From the NCBI GenBank assembly GCA_029932465.1, contig JAOZQA010000001.1:2953-66952 (forward strand): a DNA stretch of 64,000 bases. Direction: 5' to 3'. Of the stretch, positions 5,929-51,810 are shown piece by piece. Made by a program: the position numbers and the translations under genes. The stretch's first letter is position 1. Each line of letters opens with the position of its first letter. Source of the stretch: Thermoplasmatota archaeon (GTDB taxonomy: Archaea > Thermoplasmatota > Penumbrarchaeia > Penumbrarchaeales > EX4484-36). The notes below the pieces were generated by a model. It was not told the DNA's origin. It worked only from the letters and a program-made list of their open reading frames with translations, and did not search any database.

Positions 5929-8811
5929 TCATTCCACGTATACGGCTGGCTTGAGGGGTAAAGCCAGGTGTGCCCTTCCCCGGGGGTCGTATTTTGAGGG
6001 GTCATCCTCCTCGTAGACTGAGACCTCGGCCCCCAGCTCTCTGGAGAGAAAGGGAATGCTCCTCCTCAGGAAATCCTTCTCATCCCTGAAGCTGAGGTAC
6101 CTCTGCCGGTCCTCCTCCTTCATCCTCATGACATCCTTGGCCAATCTGCTTATAATCTGGGGGACCACCTTCTTTTTGTCCTTTAATTCCTCTTTCTCCA
6201 AGAACTCCTTTATTACCCTCCCGGGGTCCACCCGCCCCTTCTCCTCCCTCATCCGCATCAGCCTCTCAAGCGCCTCCCACTTCCACCCGGGGGCTGTGTA
6301 GAGGACGATCCGCTCCCCCTCCCTCCCCGTGGCTCTCCTTATGTGGGAGATGTCCTCGAGGAGTCCTTTTAGGTACTCCTCCCTGGCCAGCACTCCCTGG
6401 TCGTAGGCCTCCACCTCACCGGTCTGCGAGAGGGAGACCAGCCCCTCTCCCCCAGCCATCTCCCACAGCTCCTCAGCAAGGTGGGGGGTGAAGGGCATCA
6501 TCATCTTCGCCCAGGTGCGCACGGCCTCCTTGAAGGCCTCCCCGCCCCCGCCACCCCTTCTCAGATACCATCTTAAATCCTGATACGTCTGGTAATAGAC
6601 GGTCCCGGCGGCCTCCCTTAAGGCGTAGTTCTCCATGGCATCCAGGTACTCCGAGAACCTCTTAGCTAAAGCGGCCCTCAGGTAGTCGTCCATCTCCCCC
6701 CCCTCCCCCCCGCCAGATATAATCTCTCTCACCAGGTTGAGTATTTTAAGGAGCCTGCTCTGGTAGTCGCTTACCACCTCCTCCCTCCACTCCACATCCA
6801 TCTCCGGGGAGCCCACGTGGCAGTAGTAGAGCCTCATGGAGTCAACGCCGTAGTGGGCGATGGCCTCTGGTATGGGCTCTGCCCCACCCTTGCTCTTGGC
6901 GATCTTCTCACCGCCCTTCTGGGTCACCCACCAGTGGACGAAGATTCCCCGGGGCCATGCCCATTTAGGCATTATGGCAACGTGGTTCATGAGAAAGACG
7001 GGGAAGTGTACCGTTTTGTGCTCCTTCCCCCCCAGGTTTATATCTAGCGGATACCAGTAGAGGAAATCTCTTCTTATTTTCTCAATAACCCCCCTCCTCT
7101 CCTCCGGAAAATCACTTATCTCCCCTCTTCCAAGATAGACGTAGTCAAAGAACCTCTCATCCATCCACTCCACCTTAAGTTCACCGGAGTTCACATACTT
7201 TGAAACGATGTAGTAGGCGGGGTAGAGGGTTGAATCCGATATCGGCTCAATGATCCATCCCTTTGCGAAGGGAAACTCCGTTCCAAGCCAGGAGCCCTGG
7301 CGTATGCACGCCCTGTCAGAGAACCATTCCAGCACCCCGGGGAGCTCTCTCTTGTACTCCTCTGGATATATCATCATCCTCTCGGTGTGCTCCACTGACC
7401 TCTCGGTGAGCTCCTCGTCCGAATACCTTATGAACCACTGGTTCTCAATCCTCTTGATCACAACCCTCTCCCCGCAGCGACATATAACCTCCTTTGAAAA
7501 GTCGTAGAAGGGCCTGATGAGCCCGATGTTTTCCAGGTCCACTTTCAGGGTGTCTTTGATCTCGGAGACCTTAAGCCCTGCATAGTCCATACAGAGGTCG
7601 TTCAGCACTCCAGAGTGGAACTCCTCCCTGTAGATCTCCCGGGTGGCCTCCTCCAGCTTCTCCACCTCGAACTGGTCCTTCACCCCCATGCTCTTTACAA
7701 GATGACCTGCTGGATCCTCCATGGGGTACTTGCGGCTCTTTATGATGGTTATGGGCATAATCCCCTCCACCACGCTCTTAAGTCCCCATGGGTCCTCCCC
7801 CTCTCTCAGCTCCCCCTTAAGGTCCTCAAGGGCTATCCAGTCGTAGGGGGCGTGGGCGGGAACGGACATGACCACCCCCGTGGCCACCTTCGGGTCCACG
7901 AAGGGTCCAGGAAGTATAGGCACCTCCCTGTTGGTATAGGGCACCCGGCAGCTCTTCCCTATGAGCTCGGAGCCCTTTATCTTTCCCACTTCTTCAACAT
8001 CACCCATCTGATAGCTGAGTTTGACGTAGCCCTCCCGGGAGAGAAGCCACCCTCTTCCATCCACCTCCGCCACCACGTACTCCACATCCGGGTTCAGCCA
8101 CATGTTGGTCACGCCGAAGAGGGTCTCAGGCCGCAGCGTTGCGGCGGGGAGGATGAGCTGCTGCGGCCCCTCGAAGAGGAGGAGTGAGTACTCCAGGACA
8201 TCGGCGTCTCCCCCCTCGGAGACGTCGGTCTGGGAGGGGTCCACCGCAACCGGCCCGCAGTTTGGGCAGTAGGGGGCGTAGTGGGGCTTTTTTGTGAGAA
8301 GCCCCTTCTGGTTCAGCTTCAGGAACTGCCAGGTTATGAAGCGCTTGTACCCCGGGGATACTGTGGACATCGCCCGGGAGAGGTCTATTGTGAAGCCGAA
8401 CCTCTTCCAGTAGTCGTTTATGTACACCTTTGAGAAGAAATCAATGAGGTAGCTAACGTCCTTGAGCTTCTCAATCTCCTCCTCCGGGCAGCCGTTTCTT
8501 TTCAGATATTCTATTGTGGAGGGGTCCCCTCTCTGAATCCTCTTCGCCAGCGATATGGCTGGCAGGCCAGAGGCGTGAAATCCCACGGGAAAGAGGACGC
8601 TGTAGCCCCTCTGCCTCTTGTAGCGACAGATCACGTCAGCGTATGTGAAGCCCCTCATGTGGCCCACGTGGAGGTAGCCAGAAATTCCAGGGTAGGCGAA
8701 GATGAGAAAGAACTTCTCCCGCGTCTCATCTCTCTCCGCCTCCCACCTCACCTTCTCCTCCCATATCCTCTGCCATTTCCTTTCGATGTCAACGAGCACG
8801 TTCTCGGCCAT
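5929..8811 (-). CDS. leuS: Leucine--tRNA ligase, archaeal type
   Basis: YPGISGYLHVGH (HIGH), CP1 editing TLRPET and GVVMSVPAHAPYD, GKEHKTVH, KIAKS (KMSKS variant), C-terminal KPAVYVE. Confidence 0.97.
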   Translation of the reverse strand: MAENVLVDIERKWQRIWEEKVRWEAERDETREKFFLIFAYPGISGYLHVGHMRGFTYADVICRYKRQRGYSVLFPVGFHASGLPAISLAKRIQRGDPSTIEYLKRNGCPEEEIEKLKDVSYLIDFFSKVYINDYWKRFGFTIDLSRAMSTVSPGYKRFITWQFLKLNQKGLLTKKPHYAPYCPNCGPVAVDPSQTDVSEGGDADVLEYSLLLFEGPQQLILPAATLRPETLFGVTNMWLNPDVEYVVAEVDGRGWLLSREGYVKLSYQMGDVEEVGKIKGSELIGKSCRVPYTNREVPILPGPFVDPKVATGVVMSVPAHAPYDWIALEDLKGELREGEDPWGLKSVVEGIMPITIIKSRKYPMEDPAGHLVKSMGVKDQFEVEKLEEATREIYREEFHSGVLNDLCMDYAGLKVSEIKDTLKVDLENIGLIRPFYDFSKEVICRCGERVVIKRIENQWFIRYSDEELTERSVEHTERMMIYPEEYKRELPGVLEWFSDRACIRQGSWLGTEFPFAKGWIIEPISDSTLYPAYYIVSKYVNSGELKVEWMDERFFDYVYLGRGEISDFPEERRGVIEKIRRDFLYWYPLDINLGGKEHKTVHFPVFLMNHVAIMPKWAWPRGIFVHWWVTQKGGEKIAKSKGGAEPIPEAIAHYGVDSMRLYYCHVGSPEMDVEWREEVVSDYQSRLLKILNLVREIISGGGEGGEMDDYLRAALAKRFSEYLDAMENYALREAAGTVYYQTYQDLRWYLRRGGGGGEAFKEAVRTWAKMMMPFTPHLAEELWEMAGGEGLVSLSQTGEVEAYDQGVLAREEYLKGLLEDISHIRRATGREGERIVLYTAPGWKWEALERLMRMREEKGRVDPGRVIKEFLEKEELKDKKKVVPQIISRLAKDVMRMKEEDRQRYLSFRDEKDFLRRSIPFLSRELGAEVSVYEEDDPSKYDPRGRAHLALPLKPAVYVE

Positions 8812-15774: not shown

Positions 15775-15852
15775 TGGTGGGGCCGCTGAGATTTGAACTC
15801 AGGTCAACGGCACCCCAAGCCGCTAGGATGGTCCAAGCTACCCTACGGCCCC
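15775..15852 (-). tRNA. tRNA-Pro(GGG), CCA encoded
   Basis: Reverse complement GGGGCCG...GCGGC-TTGGGGT-GCCGT...CTGAG-TTCAAAT-CTCAG-CGGCCCC-A-CCA; follows rpoN as is usual in archaea. Confidence 0.97.
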
Positions 15853-22320: not shown

Positions 22321-22405
22321 CAGGATAGATAACCGAAGAGGATAAGAAAAAACTTTCCTTGACATTTTATAGCGATAAAAATCACCCTCTGCCCAGGAAA
22401 CGCAC

Positions 22406-22462
22406 AAGACCTACGGTTCAAATCCCGGTCGTTGTAGAGAGTTGCTGGGACAATAATGTAAG
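22406..22462 (-). repeat. tRNA-Glu 3' trailer element containing antisense T-arm
   Basis: 22415-22428 ggttcaaatcccgg is the exact reverse complement of 22471-22484 in the tRNA; flanks resemble the tRNA-Val trailer. Confidence 0.75.
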
Positions 22463-22535
22463 TGCTCCCGCCGGGATTTGAACCCGGGTCGCAGGCTCGA
22501 AAGGCCCGCATGATTGGCCGCTACACTACGGGAGC
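22463..22535 (-). tRNA. tRNA-Glu(TTC), CCA not encoded
   Basis: Reverse complement GCTCCCG...CGGGC-CTTTCGA-GCCTG...CCGGG-TTCAAAT-CCCGG-CGGGAGC-A. Confidence 0.96.
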
Positions 22536-26603: not shown

Positions 26604-27566
26604 ATGAAAGCGGAAACAAGTGCGGACAACGATGAGGTTTTCTTTGAGGAGTTCGAGGAGCTGAAGGAAGAAGAAGAGAAAATTGAAGAGGTAGACGAAG
26701 TGGAAACAGCCGAAAAGGGAAGGGTAGCCAAGAAGATACCGATACCTGAGGGTGCAAAGAGAAAGATCCTTCAGCAGGCTAGGGAAATAAAGAAGTTAAG
26801 AGGTCAGCTGGTTCGTGCAAAAAGAGAGCTGAGCACCCTTAAAGGGGAAATGGGGATGCTGAGAAGGGAGGTAGGGCGGATTGGGGAGGAGAAGACTCGG
26901 CTGGAACAGCAAGTCCTTGAGAAGGAGCAATACATAGCAGCTTACGAAAAAAAGCTTAAGAGGTTACAAAAGGATTTTGAGAGGTTTAAAGAGAGGGTGG
27001 AGAGGGAACGGGATAACGAGGTGAAGAAACTAAACCGCAAGCTGTTTTTAGAGTTCATAGAGATAAAAGACACCCTTGAAATGGCCATTGAAGACGCTGA
27101 GAGGAGACTGGAGGCCCTCGGTAAGCACAGAGATGTACAGGCGATAATAGATGGCTTGGAGGGCATTCGCTCTCAGGTCCGCAACCTCCTCAAAAGACAC
27201 GATATTGAGGAGATCAACCCGGTTGGAGAGGAGTTCGACCCCCGTTACCACGAAGCCCTAGATGTCATGGGGCCTAGAGGGTATGGGGGAGTGAAGGTGG
27301 TAAAAGAGGTGGTCTCTAAGGGGTATAGGTTGGAAGACTACCTTTTGAGACCCGCAAAGGTCATTCTGGAAGTAATCGACAGGGAGGAGGCTGAAAAGGG
27401 GGAGGAGGAAAAAGTAGAGGAAGAGGCGGAAGAGCTCCCGGAGAAGCTGGAGGAGATTGGGGAGGAGGTACTTGAAGAGCTTGAAGTAGTGGAAGGGGAG
27501 GAGTTTGAAGAGCTAGAGGAGGCGGAACTTGAGGAGTTGGAGGAGGGCTTTGAGCCAGTAGAGTAA
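26604..27566 (+). CDS. grpE: GrpE nucleotide exchange factor with long N-terminal coiled coil and acidic tails
   Basis: DFERFKERVERE, EF..I.D.LE.A, GEEFDPRYHEA, KGYRL....LRPAKV; directly upstream of dnaK. Confidence 0.85.
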   Translation: MKAETSADNDEVFFEEFEELKEEEEKIEEVDEVETAEKGRVAKKIPIPEGAKRKILQQAREIKKLRGQLVRAKRELSTLKGEMGMLRREVGRIGEEKTRLEQQVLEKEQYIAAYEKKLKRLQKDFERFKERVERERDNEVKKLNRKLFLEFIEIKDTLEMAIEDAERRLEALGKHRDVQAIIDGLEGIRSQVRNLLKRHDIEEINPVGEEFDPRYHEALDVMGPRGYGGVKVVKEVVSKGYRLEDYLLRPAKVILEVIDREEAEKGEEEKVEEEAEELPEKLEEIGEEVLEELEVVEGEEFEELEEAELEELEEGFEPVE

Positions 27567-27617
27567 GCCCCCTACCCCACTCCTTGGGCCCTCAATTTTT
27601 GACGCGATGAATTGTCT

Positions 27618-27632
27618 CAAAAAGGTTATATA
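27618..27632 (+). promoter_or_regulatory. BRE + TATA box of dnaK
   Basis: CAAAAAGG TTATATA about 40 nt upstream of ATG 27674, followed by a GGTGA RBS. Confidence 0.6.
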
Positions 27633-27673
27633 TTGCATCAATATTAATCAACCAAAATATTCCAGGTGAGAAC

Positions 27674-30259
27674 ATGGCAAGAGTTATCGGAATAGACCTC
27701 GGAACGACAAATTCTGCGATGGCGGTTCTAGAAGGCGGAGAGCCCATGATCATACCAAACGCGGAGGGGGAGAGGACAACCCCCTCGGTGGTTGCCTTTA
27801 CTGAGGATGGTGAGGTTATCGTGGGGAGGCTTGCAAAACAGCAAGCAATAGCAAACCCAGAGAGGACCATAGCCTCTATCAAAAGAAAAATGGGTTCAAC
27901 CTACAGGGTTCGGATTGATGATAAGGAGTACACTCCTCAGGAGATATCCGCTTTCATCCTGCGAAAGCTAAAACGTGATGCTGAGGAGTATCTGGGTGAG
28001 AGAATAACTAAGGCCGTTATAACAGTACCTGCTTATTTCGAAGACCCGCAGAGGCAGGCCACCAAGGATGCCGGCAGGATTGCAGGCCTTGACGTGTTGA
28101 GAATAATCAACGAACCCACCGCCGCCGCCCTGGCGTACGGTCTGGATAAAATGGACGAGGAGCTCACAGTCCTTGTGTTTGACCTTGGCGGGGGGACGTT
28201 TGACGTATCCATACTTGAGATAGGAAACGGGCTCTTCGAAGTCAAAGCAACCTCCGGGAACAATCACCTAGGAGGGGATGATTTCGACAGGAGGATCATG
28301 GACTGGCTGATAGACAGATTTGAGGAGAGATACGGTGTAGACCTCTCCCAGGATCGTATTGCAATGCAGAGATTGAAGGACGCTGCGGAGAAGGCCAAGA
28401 TTGAGCTCTCCACGAAACTCAGCACTGTCATCTCGCTGCCTTACATCTGGGTGGATGAGACCGGTCCCAAACATCTGGAAGAGGAGTTGACCCGGAAACG
28501 CTTTGAGGCCATGACGGAGGATCTGATTGAAAAGACGATTGGGCCCACTAAGCGGGCACTCAAGGATGCTGGACTTAGACCATCGGACATAGACAAAATC
28601 CTTCTTGTTGGTGGAATGACCAGGATGCCCGCGGTCCAGAACTTCATACGAGAGTTCTTCAAGAAGAACCCTGAGAAGAAGATCAACCCCGATGAATGCG
28701 TAGCTATCGGTGCAGCTATCCAGGGCGGTGTTCTGACTGGGGAGGTAAAAGACGTTCTTCTGCTGGACGTGACACCCCTTTCGCTGGGTGTGGAGACCGT
28801 GGGTGGTCTGACCTCTAAGATTATTCCGAGAAATACCACCATACCAACCAGGAAGAGCCAGATATTTTCCACTGCCGAGGACAATCAGACCTCTGTGGAG
28901 ATACACGTGGTGCAGGGTGAGAGAGAGCTTGCGAAGGATAATAAATCCCTTGGAAAGTTCACCCTTGTTGGCATCCCACCGGCCCCCAGAGGCGTACCTC
29001 AGATAGAGGTTACCTTTGAGATAGACGCCGATGGAATACTCAACGTCTCCGCAAAAGACTTAGCCACCGGTAAAGAGCAGAAGATAAAGATACAGCCTTC
29101 TTCTGGCATTACGGAGGAGGACGTCAAAAGGATGATAGAAGATGCTGAGAGATACGCTGAGGAAGACAGAAAGAAGAGAAAACTGATAGAGCTCAAAAAT
29201 CAGGCAGATGCCCTCATATATCATACGGAGAAGAGCATAAAAGAACTGGAAGACAAACTGGATAGAGACAAGCTTAGAGAGGTCAAGAAAATAATAAAAG
29301 AAACCCGGGCTGCCATGGAGGGGACTAGCGTTAAGAAGCTGAAAGCTGCCATAGAGAAGCTCAATGACGCGTCCAAGGACCTCTTTGTGGGCGTATGGGG
29401 ACGGGTGGCTGAAGAAGAATATGAGCCTGTTACTGTGAAATGTCCGAAATGTACTAAGAAGTTCACTGTGACGAATCCAACAAGGCCCCTTAAGGTCACC
29501 TGCCCATATTGCGGTGCAACGGGCACAATAAGAACACCTCCTAAGAAAAAGAAGGTGGAGAAGAAGAAGGAAGAGAAGGCTCCAAAGAAGAAGGTGAAGG
29601 AAGAGGAGGTGGAGAAGCCGAAGAAACCAAAGAAACCGAAGAGGGAGGAGAAGGTAAGGGAGAAAGAGGAGATAATTACTCCTCCGCCACCCAAGAGACG
29701 GTACGAGGAGGAGGAAGAGGAGTACTATCCCAGAAGGCGGAGATATGAGGAGGAAGAGGAAGAAGAGTACTATCCACGAAGAGGGAGATACGAGGTGGAG
29801 AAGGAAGAGTTCAAACCGGAGGTCAGAGAAGAATACGGTTATGAGGAGAAGTATGAAGAGGAGGCCTATGGCGTTCCAATCGCTGAGTATGAAGAGGAAG
29901 AGGCACCTGCAGAAGAGGAGACGGCTATTGTAGAATGTCCGAAGTGTGGGGCAGAGATTGAAGTTCCTCTTACCGGTGCGGTGGAGAGGATTAGGTGTCC
30001 CGAGTGCGGCACCCGGGGTAGGGTGGACACCTCTCTTTTGATGGGTGAGGAGGAAGAAGAGGAGGAAGAAGAGGAGGAAGAGGAGGAGTACTATCCCAGA
30101 AGGAGGCGGTATGAAGAGGAGGAAGAAGAGGAAGAGGAGGAAGTGAAACCCACCATAGTGAGATGCAAGAAATGTGGCCATAGGTTCAAAGTCACATCCA
30201 GAAAGAGGCCTCTCAGAATCCGATGTCCCGAGTGCGGAGCAGAGGGTGTGCTGAAATAG
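27674..30259 (+). CDS. dnaK: DnaK (Hsp70) with ~290-aa C-terminal extension of three zinc ribbons and Glu-rich repeats
   Basis: [37 protein letters not shown], linker [13 protein letters not shown], substrate-binding domain and lid; then CPKC/CPYC, CPKC/CPEC, CKKC/CPEC. Confidence 0.96.
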
Positions 30260-34682: not shown

Positions 34683-34756
34683 GGGCCCGTGGTCTAGCTG
34701 GTTATGACGTCGCCCTCACACGGCGGAGGTCGCCGGTTCGAACCCGGCCGGGCCCA
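34683..34756 (+). tRNA. tRNA-Val(CAC), CCA not encoded
   Basis: GGGCCCG...TCGCC-CTCACAC-GGCGG-AGGTC-GCCGG-TTCGAAC-CCGGC-CGGGCCC-A followed by CCT. Confidence 0.96.
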
Positions 34757-34980
34757 CCTTTAATAATTTTGTGGTCAGCGGATATTAACGTGGCCGGGTT
34801 CGAACCGAAGGTCTTCCGCACTTGCAGAGAAAAGGAATTAACGAAGGAAGTGCGGAGGCAAGGTGAAAACGGTCTAAAGAGGATGAAATGAGGAGTTTTC
34901 ACCGTGTCGAACCCGGCCGGGCCCACCTTTAATAATTTTGTGGTCAGCGGATATTAACGTGGCCGGGTTCGAACCGAAGG
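34738..34980 (+). repeat. Perfect 74-bp direct repeat (tRNA-Val 3' end + trailer) flanking a 95-bp insert
   Basis: 34738-34811 and 34907-34980 read identically base by base; the repeat starts inside the T-loop. Confidence 0.92.
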
Positions 34981-39819: not shown

Positions 39820-40512
39820 TTGAAGACTATGTTTTTGGACACCCTTGAAGGTCTAAGCAGAATATTCAGAGGAGACATAAAGCCCCCGAAAGTCATTCTG
39901 GTTACGGGCCCTCCCGGATCTCTCAAATCCTCCTTTGTATACATGCTCTTCTCAAAGTACTTGAAGAACCGTGATGAGGTGGGGCTTTACTGTACCCTGG
40001 AGGAGTCCGTTGCCTCGCATCTTACAAACATGGAGAGTCTGGGAGTGGAGCTAATATATAACATGCAGATCATTGACTTCTCGTCCCTGAGGAGGGAAGA
40101 GGAGGAGATGGACTATCTGGAATTCCTCAAAAAAAGCCTGGTGAGGTTCAAGGAGAAATACGGAGAACATTTTACACTCTTCGCCCTGGACTCCTTAGGC
40201 GCCCTCTATTCCATCATGGAGGATGACACGAACCTCAGGAGGAGGATGTATCACTTCTTTCAGTTCCTGAGGGAGCTTAATCTCTTCTCCTTCCTCATCA
40301 TGGAGAGGGACCCAGACAGCCCGTCACAGTTTCTGGGAAATGAATCCTATCTCTCCGACGGCATAATCTATTTGGGGATGAAGAACCGGAAGGGCCAGAT
40401 CATAAGATTCATCCAGATCGAGAAGATGCGTACTGTGGAGCACAGTATGGCTCCCCACGCGATCACCGTTAGAAAAGGAGACATCTCCATACTAGGAGAA
40501 ATCCTTGACTGA
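39820..40512 (+). CDS. Single-domain KaiC/RAD55-family ATPase
   Basis: TGPPGSLKS, TLEES, FALDSL, SDGII, IQIEKMR. Confidence 0.85.
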   Translation: MKTMFLDTLEGLSRIFRGDIKPPKVILVTGPPGSLKSSFVYMLFSKYLKNRDEVGLYCTLEESVASHLTNMESLGVELIYNMQIIDFSSLRREEEEMDYLEFLKKSLVRFKEKYGEHFTLFALDSLGALYSIMEDDTNLRRRMYHFFQFLRELNLFSFLIMERDPDSPSQFLGNESYLSDGIIYLGMKNRKGQIIRFIQIEKMRTVEHSMAPHAITVRKGDISILGEILD

Positions 40513-51114: not shown

Positions 51115-51810
51115 ATGCTGAGATACTGTTTGGACGGGCTGGAAAACGTGGTTTTCACAGACATTCCCCGGGGATATATAGTCCTCGTCACGGGTCCCCC
51201 TGGTAGTTTCAAGACGGGCATCACGTTCAACATTATGGCCAACTACCTTAAGAATACCGGTGAGTTCGGGGTCTACATGACCCTGGAGGAGAGCACTGAA
51301 TCTCACCTGAGGAACATGGAATCCTTGGGAATCGAGGTGCCGGACAATCTCCTTATAACGGATTACTCCGATATAAGAAAGCGGTTTGAGTCCTCCGAAG
51401 AACACCCGGATTTCCTCGAGATGGTGGACGGGGTGATCAAATACTTCAAGGAGAAAGAGGGTGAGCGTTTTTCCATCTTTGCCCTCGACTCTCTGGGTGC
51501 CCTCTACTCCCTCATATCTACCCAGAACCTCAGGGCCAGAATGTTTCACTTCTTCAAAAAGCTCAGAGATTACAACCTCTATTCCTTCGTCGTTATGGAG
51601 ACCCCAAAATATTCAAACATTGCTGAGGGGGAAGGAGGAGAGTACTTCCTCACAGACGGAATAATCGAACTGGGTATGATCGAGCGTGAGAGGGATGTGA
51701 GGCTTTATCTCCAGGTCCCAAAGCTGAGGGCTGCCTACCATAGCAGGAAGAAGTTCTATATCGATGTTGGAGAGAAGGGTCTGTCCGTGCTCAGCCCTGT
51801 TTATGACTGA
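51115..51810 (+). CDS. Single-domain KaiC/RAD55-family ATPase
   Basis: TGPPGSFKT, TLEES, FALDSL, TDGIIEL, VPKLR. Confidence 0.85.
   Translation: MLRYCLDGLENVVFTDIPRGYIVLVTGPPGSFKTGITFNIMANYLKNTGEFGVYMTLEESTESHLRNMESLGIEVPDNLLITDYSDIRKRFESSEEHPDFLEMVDGVIKYFKEKEGERFSIFALDSLGALYSLISTQNLRARMFHFFKKLRDYNLYSFVVMETPKYSNIAEGEGGEYFLTDGIIELGMIERERDVRLYLQVPKLRAAYHSRKKFYIDVGEKGLSVLSPVYD

Follow-up and report, generated by a model that had tools for sequence, protein, structure and literature searches.

The described element closest to the units analyzed here is the RtT RNA of Escherichia coli (Rfam RF00391), which has been a named RNA since 1991, remains unexplained, and is treated as an enterobacterial oddity; the repeats behind tyrT from which it stems have been known since 1978. 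In RefSeq, an 'RtT sRNA, processed from tyrT transcript' is annotated behind each tRNA-Tyr of E. coli. The 178-bp unit consists, in this order, of a spacer, GGGGAAGGATGAGAAGCTTCG, GGTTCGAC, a body containing the motif GCGAAGC, and AATCCTTCCCCCACCACCA, where GGGGAAGGATGAGAAGCTTCG is a degenerate antisense T-arm and AATCCTTCCCCCACCACCA represents the last 19 nt of tRNA-Tyr, starting from the T-loop. In the Rfam consensus, the antisense segment pairs with the 3' tRNA copy and thereby closes the RNA. Across 5426 E. coli genomes, the RtT unit matches at 0 to 14 places per genome, with 685 genomes showing no match, and no RtT units were found in phage genomes. The RF00391 model (gathering score 45 bits) also recognizes a module behind a tRNA-Lys of Erwinia with 87.6 bits, and therefore the bacterial family also follows its host tRNA; a module behind a tRNA-Arg of Steroidobacteraceae scores 31 bits, which is below the threshold. 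A mobilome preprint reports that the coverage of the tyrT-rttR region is raised under stress, and calls its mode of action unknown (10.1101/2024.07.17.603846).

The window, i.e. the whole stretch of 64,000 nucleotides that was analyzed, comprises three well-supported tRNA genes, for Pro, Glu, and Val, as identified by both ARAGORN and Rfam; a 'tRNA-Thr' at 8256-8331 was called by ARAGORN without Rfam support. The tRNA-Glu and tRNA-Val genes are followed by an antisense copy of the T-loop and 3' T-stem of the host tRNA, hereafter aT, which belongs to a module named X. The features are, in order of position:

15775-15852, minus strand: tRNA-Pro gene (ARAGORN; Rfam)
22394-22414, minus strand: stump of an X body, made up of a GTAGG mini-hairpin junction and TCTTGTGCGTTTCCTG (sequence match to module X1 of L159)
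22415-22428, minus strand: aT at tRNA-Glu, orphaned 5' strand of helix P1 (exact match; shuffles)
22429-22462, minus strand: A-type spacer of 34 nt, T/A-rich (CTTACATTATTGT..CAGC..AACGA), conserved in L130-L137 and L159
22463-22535, minus strand: tRNA-Glu (UUC), host gene (ARAGORN; Rfam 60.6 bits)
22471-22484, minus strand: T-arm sequence of tRNA-Glu, GGTTCAAATCCCGG, within the host gene
34683-34756, plus strand: tRNA-Val (CAC), host gene (ARAGORN; Rfam)
34757-34791, plus strand: spacer of 35 nt behind tRNA-Val (CCTTTAATAATTTTGT..CAGC..AACGT; sequence)
34789-34925, plus strand: complete X module (covariance model R1, 124.6 bits; fold z-score -4.8; covariation; missing in L007)
34792-34807, plus strand: aT of the Val X module
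34813-34823 with 34848-34858, plus strand: helix P2 of the Val X module
34862-34870 with 34895-34903, plus strand: helix P3 of the Val X module
34907-34925, plus strand: copy of the last 19 nt of tRNA-Val, TCGAACCCGGCCGGGCCCA
34926-34980, plus strand: second spacer, second orphan aT (34961-34976), and AAGG (end of the direct repeat)

The exact antisense T-arm that the initial annotation had described 34 nt behind tRNA-Glu is real. Indeed, GGTTCAAATCCCGG occurs exactly twice in the window, once as the T-arm of tRNA-Glu and once as its reverse complement at 22415-22428, 34 nt from the discriminator base, whereas shuffles lead to an expectation of 0.04 matches with one mismatch permitted. Behind tRNA-Val, an exact 16-nt antisense copy of the T-arm, CGGTTCGAACCCGGCC, is located at 34792-34807 and a second one at 34961-34976, with 0.00 matches expected by shuffles. 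The flanking sequence TTYGAACCGWAGGTCTT is found exactly at both loci, and shows four matches with up to three mismatches versus 0.39 expected. On the tRNA strand, the trailer of tRNA-Glu reads CTTACATTATTGTCCCAGCAACTCTCTACAACGA-CCGGGATTTGAACC-GTAGG-TCTTGTGCG.... Behind tRNA-Pro (15775-15852) we observe neither an antisense T-arm piece nor a match to R1.

The tRNA-Val locus displays one complete X module and a second, orphan antisense piece. The locus also contains a perfect 74-bp direct repeat (34738-34811 and 34907-34980), absent from the initial annotation, each copy of which starts in the T-loop, continues across the tRNA 3' end and the spacer, and reaches as far as the antisense piece. 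The 95 bp located between the repeats form two hairpins, and the insert contains no ORF of note. From its 5' end, X thus defined is composed of aT, a mini-hairpin, two long hairpins, and a copy of the last 19 nt of the host tRNA, which spans the T-loop to the discriminator base. A flank of the form G(T/A)AGGTCTT had been proposed as common to the two loci. At tRNA-Val, however, its TCTT makes up the initial 4 nt of an insertion of 169 bp, which is missing from some strains; strain L007, which lacks the insert, reads ...CCGAAGG|GCCCGGG at this position.

Four diverged copies of X (one at tRNA-Val, one at tRNA-Glu of a sister strain, and two from L159) align without gaps, and all of them have a length of exactly 136 nt when the unit is taken to begin 4 nt ahead of the antisense piece and to end with the copy of the discriminator base. 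RNAalifold applied to these four copies predicts four helices with 37 pairs, 13 of which are changed on both sides, and 94.6% of the cells are paired in the predicted structure. Shuffled alignments contain 5.3 ± 1.6 such compensatory pairs, and none of the 500 shuffles reaches 13; sliding the partners by 1-3 columns leaves three at most. In the predicted structure, the first helix, P1, is formed by aT paired with the tRNA-derived tail and closes the fold; its 13 pairs are 96% paired and four of them changed on both sides. Single-sequence folds of X have z-scores of -4.8 and -5.9. The cells of X that depart from Watson-Crick pairing include three G-U and no A-C, and several invariant G-U pairs occur in Y, the second type of body described below. 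This pattern agrees better with a single-stranded molecule of tRNA sense than with a protein site in a duplex. In folding energy, the modules favor the sense strand only weakly, by 35 versus 23 (Wilcoxon p = 0.03).

The covariance model R1, built from the four X copies, recovers sequences outside its training set, namely L054 (Thermoplasmata, tRNA-Glu; 49 bits), L015 (labelled Methanobacteriota, tRNA-Pro; 26.9 bits, E 4e-4), and a decayed copy in L149 (45 bits). These matches, the arrays, and the relatives bear out the proposal of a dispersed tRNA-linked family common to tRNA-Glu and tRNA-Val. Likewise, the initial annotation was right that the tRNA-matching core varies with the host tRNA, which holds across the modules of strains and relatives, the alignment, and the covariance model. 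This dependence on the host tRNA would be explained by P1, in which the antisense core has to match the tail copied from the neighboring gene.

In the window, the X module at tRNA-Glu has been reduced to its first ~35 nt. The flank TCTTGTGCGTTTCCTG (22394-22409) shows no difference from the opening 16 nt of X1 in L159, where it forms the 5' strand of P2, and the feature at tRNA-Glu can for this reason be read as the stump of a deleted module; the tRNA tail copy with which aT would pair has been deleted. R1 gives a weak match of 15.7 bits at the stump (window positions 22328-22431). As judged from its sequence, the antisense piece at tRNA-Glu is thus the remaining 5' end of a deleted X, of which the spacer, aT, the junction, and the 5' strand of P2 survive.

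The copy number of these modules differs between near-identical strains. Among strains and relatives, we observe 0 to 4 tandem modules at tRNA-Val and tRNA-Glu. At tRNA-Val, contigs of different samples that encode an identical neighboring MTAP protein carry 0, 1, or probably 2 X modules: in L007 the tRNA, the spacer, and the antisense piece are directly followed by GCCCGGG, without insert; a single insert of 169 bp is present in the window and in L002-L006; and L005 contains a scaffold gap whose size is that expected for a second insert. At tRNA-Glu, the short form is found in the window and L130-L137, and the interval between the tRNA and the ABC ATPase is extended by 329 bp (L132), 427 bp (L129), and 488 bp (L135) by tandem X and Y modules. 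Each module of this Glu array is made up of the spacer, the antisense piece, a two-hairpin body of type X or Y, and a partial tRNA 3' end. In a Y module of the array, this 3' end is the tail of another tRNA, AAATTCTGGCACCCGCA, and therefore indicates movement between loci, beyond simple unequal crossing-over. The orphan aT is kept in all strains at tRNA-Glu, as well as in the 'empty' Val allele of L007, and in L134 it is kept at tRNA-Glu although seven adjacent nucleotides are deleted.

More distant relatives show both loss and conservation. In L146, whose MTAP is 85% identical, the same tRNA-Val is followed by an unrelated trailer, with neither aT nor module, and therefore the antisense piece is not intrinsic to this tRNA-Val gene. 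Another relative with 85% identity, L149, contains a decayed X at tRNA-Val, and L158 also contains a decayed copy. In L159, a member of the Thermoplasmata whose ABC ATPase is 57% identical, the order behind tRNA-Glu is spacer-X1-spacer-X2-spacer-Y-spacer. The ~34-nt spacer itself is conserved from the present organism to L159 (CTTTTCATTATTGTCCTAACAACTCTAAGTAACGA versus CTTACATTATTGTCCCAGCAACTCTCTACAACGA). The center of its T/A-rich start lies ~26 nt upstream of AACG, a conserved motif in front of aT, and ~26 nt is the usual distance between the TATA box and the transcription start in archaea. From this promoter geometry, the T/A-rich start of the spacer may be a TATA-like promoter for the next unit, and its T-run might provide the termination of the preceding unit.

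The initial annotation had stated that no standard feature class explains the trailer. This statement is not supported in that form, since the tyrT repeats of E. coli share both the layout and the closing helix. Like the RtT units, X units are positioned directly 3' of a tRNA gene, are repeated in tandem, and vary in copy number between strains; they end with the last 19 nt of the host tRNA, starting in the T-loop, as seen at tRNA-Val and in the Glu modules of L132, L135, and L159; and they begin with an antisense T-arm that pairs with this tail as a closing helix around inner hairpins. Differences are also apparent. The archaeal unit is 136 nt long, has different inner helices, and has no detectable sequence or covariance-model similarity to RtT, and the antisense piece of RtT is degenerate and covers tRNA positions 49-68, whereas the archaeal aT is exact and covers positions 52-66. 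The tyrT gene is described as subject to rho-dependent termination, whereas the spacing and the putative termination signals of X are archaeal (a T-run and a TATA-like box), and RtT is annotated only in enterobacteria. RF00391 had no match in L135 or L002 at E <= 10, nor in the window when it was scanned with Rfam at the gathering threshold. The archaeal X and Y modules therefore share the RtT design without being members of the family by sequence; the resemblance may reflect homology or could be convergent.

A scan of a genome collection with the general pattern of sense and antisense T-arm returned at least 119 loci among the matches listed, most of which consist of a single tRNA followed by an antisense T-arm. 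Also among the matches listed, a partial copy of the tRNA's own 3' end occurs within 700 nt downstream for 62 of 99 tRNAs with the aT pattern, compared to 5 of 76 other tRNAs at the same loci; a median of 98 nt separates the antisense piece from the end of the copy, and in 46 of 67 modules the first base of the copy falls within the T-loop (C56-N59). The motif GCGAAGC, in the bodies of the matches listed, is found on the tRNA-sense strand in 14 of 60 cases, but is missing from the opposite strand (0 of 60) and from the controls (0 of 60). The examples listed belong to Nanoarchaeota, Thermoplasmata, many haloarchaea, Patescibacteria, Clostridia, and Proteobacteria. Nanoarchaeota are represented by L030 and by L092 and L119, two loci of one genome that have homologous bodies at tRNA-Glu and tRNA-Ser. 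This sample of at least 119 loci suggests that the design is common in bacteria and archaea. A metagenome scan with a strict pattern of the X right end, from which Val- and Glu-type T-stems were excluded, gave six chance matches in coding sequence.

We favor, with moderate confidence, the interpretation that X is an RtT-like, tRNA-linked module which probably operates at the RNA level and which gains or loses copies when the repeated tRNA tails recombine. X would act as a single-stranded, tRNA-sense transcript, most simply a small RNA, that could originate either from the TATA-like box in the spacer or from read-through of the tRNA. The tRNA-like 3' end and the closed terminal helix would give this RNA defined, stable, and protected ends. 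Arrays would grow and shrink via recombination between the repeated blocks of tRNA tail, spacer, and aT, and aT would track the host tRNA as it must pair with a tail kept identical to the neighboring gene. The natural partner of the antisense piece is not the T-arm of its own tRNA, as had been proposed initially: in complete modules, the partner is the tRNA copy at the far end, with which it co-varies. A piece of a tRNA transcript acting as an RNA itself has a precedent in the 3' external transcribed spacer of glyW-cysT-leuZ, a sponge for small RNAs, which, unlike X, has no tRNA-derived ends and shows no repeat or array behavior.

The main rival to the RtT-like reading is a miniature, non-autonomous integrative DNA element, in which a T-loop-specific recombinase acting in trans inserts the unit (tail, spacer, aT, and body) into the T-loop; the inverted repeat of aT and tail would then constitute, together with the hairpins, a recombination site, possibly as folded single-stranded DNA in the manner of CTX attP and attC. 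Partial tRNA copies starting in the T-loop are a classic mark of site-specific integration, and the direct repeats observed here do start in the T-loop. Furthermore, a tRNA 3' direct repeat (the 74-bp repeat) flanks DNA that is missing elsewhere (L007 and L146, the latter with the same tRNA-Val and no module), and modules are present or absent between near-identical strains, are arranged in tandem arrays, share one body family at different tRNAs with matching ends, and include a Y module with a foreign tRNA tail. The fact that structure is kept while sequence varies is also seen in folded single-stranded DNA sites, such as integron attC. Nevertheless, the genes called within ±10 kb around tRNA-Val and ±6 kb around tRNA-Glu encode no integrase Pfam domain; att-like sequences have no exact match in IMG/VR viral contigs; the attP regions of pNOB8 and pXZ1 do not contain an antisense T-arm within 150 bp; and RtT units are equally missing from phage genomes. 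Ordinary recombination between the 74-bp repeats can yield all of the copy-number changes seen, and the conservation of array order between relatives with 57% identical ABC proteins points to long vertical inheritance under constraint. For the earlier att-site proposal, the direct repeats starting in the T-loop speak in favor, as T-loop integration sites show the same, whereas no integrase was found in the vicinity and two known archaeal attP sites have no antisense piece. Compared with the att sites of tyrosine integrases (SSV, pNOB8, and T-loop classes), X shares the direct repeat from the T-loop and the tandem accumulation at one tRNA, but the insert is only 95-165 bp, geneless, and without a nearby integrase, and it has a fixed length and a co-varying fold. 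Integron attC and CTX phage attP sites also have imperfect inverted repeats, conservation of structure over sequence, and cassette-like arrays beside a fixed site; for X, no integron integrase or Xer context was found and the ends are tRNA-derived. The parallel is an analogy only. We consider an integrative element of this kind unlikely.

The remaining explanations appear less probable still. If X modules were inert scars, decaying leftovers of larger elements once integrated at tRNA genes, the truncated unit at tRNA-Glu in the window and the decayed copies in L149 and L158 would be expected, and tRNA 3' ends are established integration hot spots (PMC8371274); however, intact units fixed at 136 nt, 13 pairs with compensatory changes, a conserved spacer, and a layout that recurs, along with a body motif specific to one strand, in distantly related archaea and bacteria are difficult to reconcile with decay, and we regard this explanation as improbable. 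A cis-acting trailer, in which aT pairs with the T-arm of its own tRNA in a read-through pre-tRNA, blocks the cloverleaf, and either terminates transcription or gates maturation, is consistent with the retention of the orphan aT in all strains (at tRNA-Glu and in the Val allele of L007), even in L134. RNAfold does pair aT with the T-arm, breaking the cloverleaf, in both tRNA-plus-trailer transcripts, but the corresponding z-scores are only -2.0 and -1.8, and a T-rich run lies between the tRNA and aT while no T-run follows aT. This is therefore not the layout of an intrinsic terminator, and transcripts may stop before aT. The termination that had been proposed for the trailer fails on this ground: 42 nt separate the two arms, the would-be loop contains the T-rich stretch, and aT is followed only by TTT. 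The gating of maturation fares somewhat better, since read-through would make pairing of aT with its own T-arm thermodynamically possible, yet L146 has no aT at an identical tRNA-Val and complete modules give aT a dedicated, co-varying partner, so that we hold a cis-acting trailer to be rather improbable as well, slightly more so than scars. Finally, the idea of a chance match, or of a piece belonging to a convergent tRNA or pseudo-tRNA encoded opposite, has practically nothing to commend it here: convergent tRNA pairs do produce the same raw sense/antisense pattern in L094 and L107, but the shuffle expectations are those given above (0.04 for Glu and 0.00 for Val), and neither ARAGORN nor Rfam calls an opposite-strand tRNA.

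Several other identities were considered and rejected. The identity of the antisense piece ends at the T-stem and the piece therefore has no acceptor arm, which, with the lack of an ARAGORN or Rfam call, dismisses an opposite-strand tRNA or a split-tRNA half. A C/D-box or H/ACA guide RNA was rejected as no C, D, or ACA boxes are in register on either of the two strands read. The 'GFEPKV' frame, considered as a coding leftover from the N-terminus of an SSV-type integrase, runs into a stop at the Glu locus; the ORFs are 40-74 aa long and overlap the tRNA. The three-way junction has no conserved core of a hammerhead or other small ribozyme, and no Rfam match was found at the Val locus and in the Glu array (L002 and L135) at E <= 10. 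MITEs resemble X in their small size, non-coding nature, inverted-repeat ends (aT and the T-arm copy), and strain polymorphism, but X is strictly located behind tRNA genes and its ends match the host tRNA instead of transposase terminal repeats; moreover, the stretches next to aT and to the T-arm copy do not repeat one another in direct orientation, so there is no target-site duplication. A viral or plasmid origin was also discarded, since the IMG/VR scans gave chance matches or none and plasmid BLAST matched only the tRNA itself.

A far broader hypothesis would unite X, Y, RtT, and the similar units of haloarchaea, Nanoarchaeota, Patescibacteria, Clostridia, and Proteobacteria in one cross-domain class of protein-less, tRNA-addressed elements. 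In such elements, aT and the tail would serve as a nucleic-acid address that pairs with both strands of the T-arm of the tRNA gene and guides the repair or recombination enzymes of the host to insert the unit into the T-loop, in the spirit of the bridge RNAs of IS110, and GCGAAGC would be a handle for a conserved host factor. We mention this class as a speculation to which we attach a low probability. Our literature search returned nothing on antisense T-arms, archaeal RtT-like units, or miniature tRNA-integrating elements; the archaeal X and Y modules, the exact rule linking their ends to the host tRNA, and the apparent spread across domains were not found in the literature searched.

The RtT-like design is now seen in an uncultured vent archaeon of the Thermoplasmata group, where it is accompanied by covariation, a fixed length, and gain and loss at the level of strains. 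An old E. coli RNA thereby becomes a general, testable pattern, with the rule that the ends of the unit follow the host tRNA. This pattern also explains some of the 'partial tRNA' fragments that occur close to tRNA genes and would otherwise be taken for scars of integration.

Two types of small folded module, X and Y, lie behind the tRNA genes, each ending in a copy of the tRNA 3' tail and separated from its neighbor by a T/A-rich spacer. Besides the spacers carrying an antisense T-arm, we observe a second type (B), in which the antisense segment matches the acceptor 3' end and the start of the trailer (GGAGCACCAAATTAC / GTAATTTGGCGCTCC) instead of the T-arm. B spacers precede Y modules, and their inverted repeat co-varies between the two B copies. 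They occur on two strain contigs, L132 and L135, that carry extra modules at the tRNA-Glu locus:

L132, 7751-7798: B spacer
L135, 7751-7798: B spacer
L135, 7913-7959: B spacer

In the tRNA-Glu array of L135, one Y module terminates in a 3' tail that belongs to another tRNA, AAATTCTGGCACCCGCA (7890-7912), and the same foreign-tail module is found at the same coordinates in contig L129. Its spacer carries that tail in antisense, GTAATTTAGTGC. The presence of a foreign tRNA tail inside the tRNA-Glu array shows that modules have moved from one tRNA locus to another.

Among the matches listed from the genome-collection scan (L010-L128), GCGAAGC occurs on the tRNA-sense strand of 14 of 60 module bodies, on the antisense strand of none (0/60), and in none of the 60 controls. 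The shorter AGCGA[AG] is found in 30/60 bodies in sense, 1/60 in antisense, and 3/60 controls. A strand-specific motif is shared by tRNA-linked module bodies of bacteria and archaea, including that of the RtT repeat of E. coli tyrT (L139, 1632-1763). Some scan matches (L063, L087, L098) are perfect long palindromes running to a contig end; they resemble fold-back artefacts of assembly more than real biological features.

Within the window, the tRNA-Thr called by ARAGORN at 8256-8331 has no match to the Rfam tRNA model, sits in GC-rich, apparently coding DNA, and is probably a false positive.

At 855-861 aa, the DnaK homologue (window ~27000-29600) is of unusual length, and it has faint zinc-ribbon matches. 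Its length varies among strains (L002-L007, 2609-5188; L134, 334-2372, where it is broken into fragments); in L005, the sole gene call over this stretch is a different gene on the opposite strand. Extended GAGGAAGAG-type repeats at 29540-30150 (direct repeat families D2, D3, D9, and D11) point to a repetitive, highly acidic coding region. Family D12, a 71-nt repeat at 40147-40217 and 51445-51515 (77% identity, 11.3 kb apart), probably marks paralogous genes.

Two tRNA-linked modules (L089, 1316-1442; L028, 6849-7149) are overlapped by sub-threshold Rfam matches to sX4 (Xanthomonas) and MH_s15 (Mesorhizobium). Units like these modules may be among the sRNAs detected by RNA-seq.
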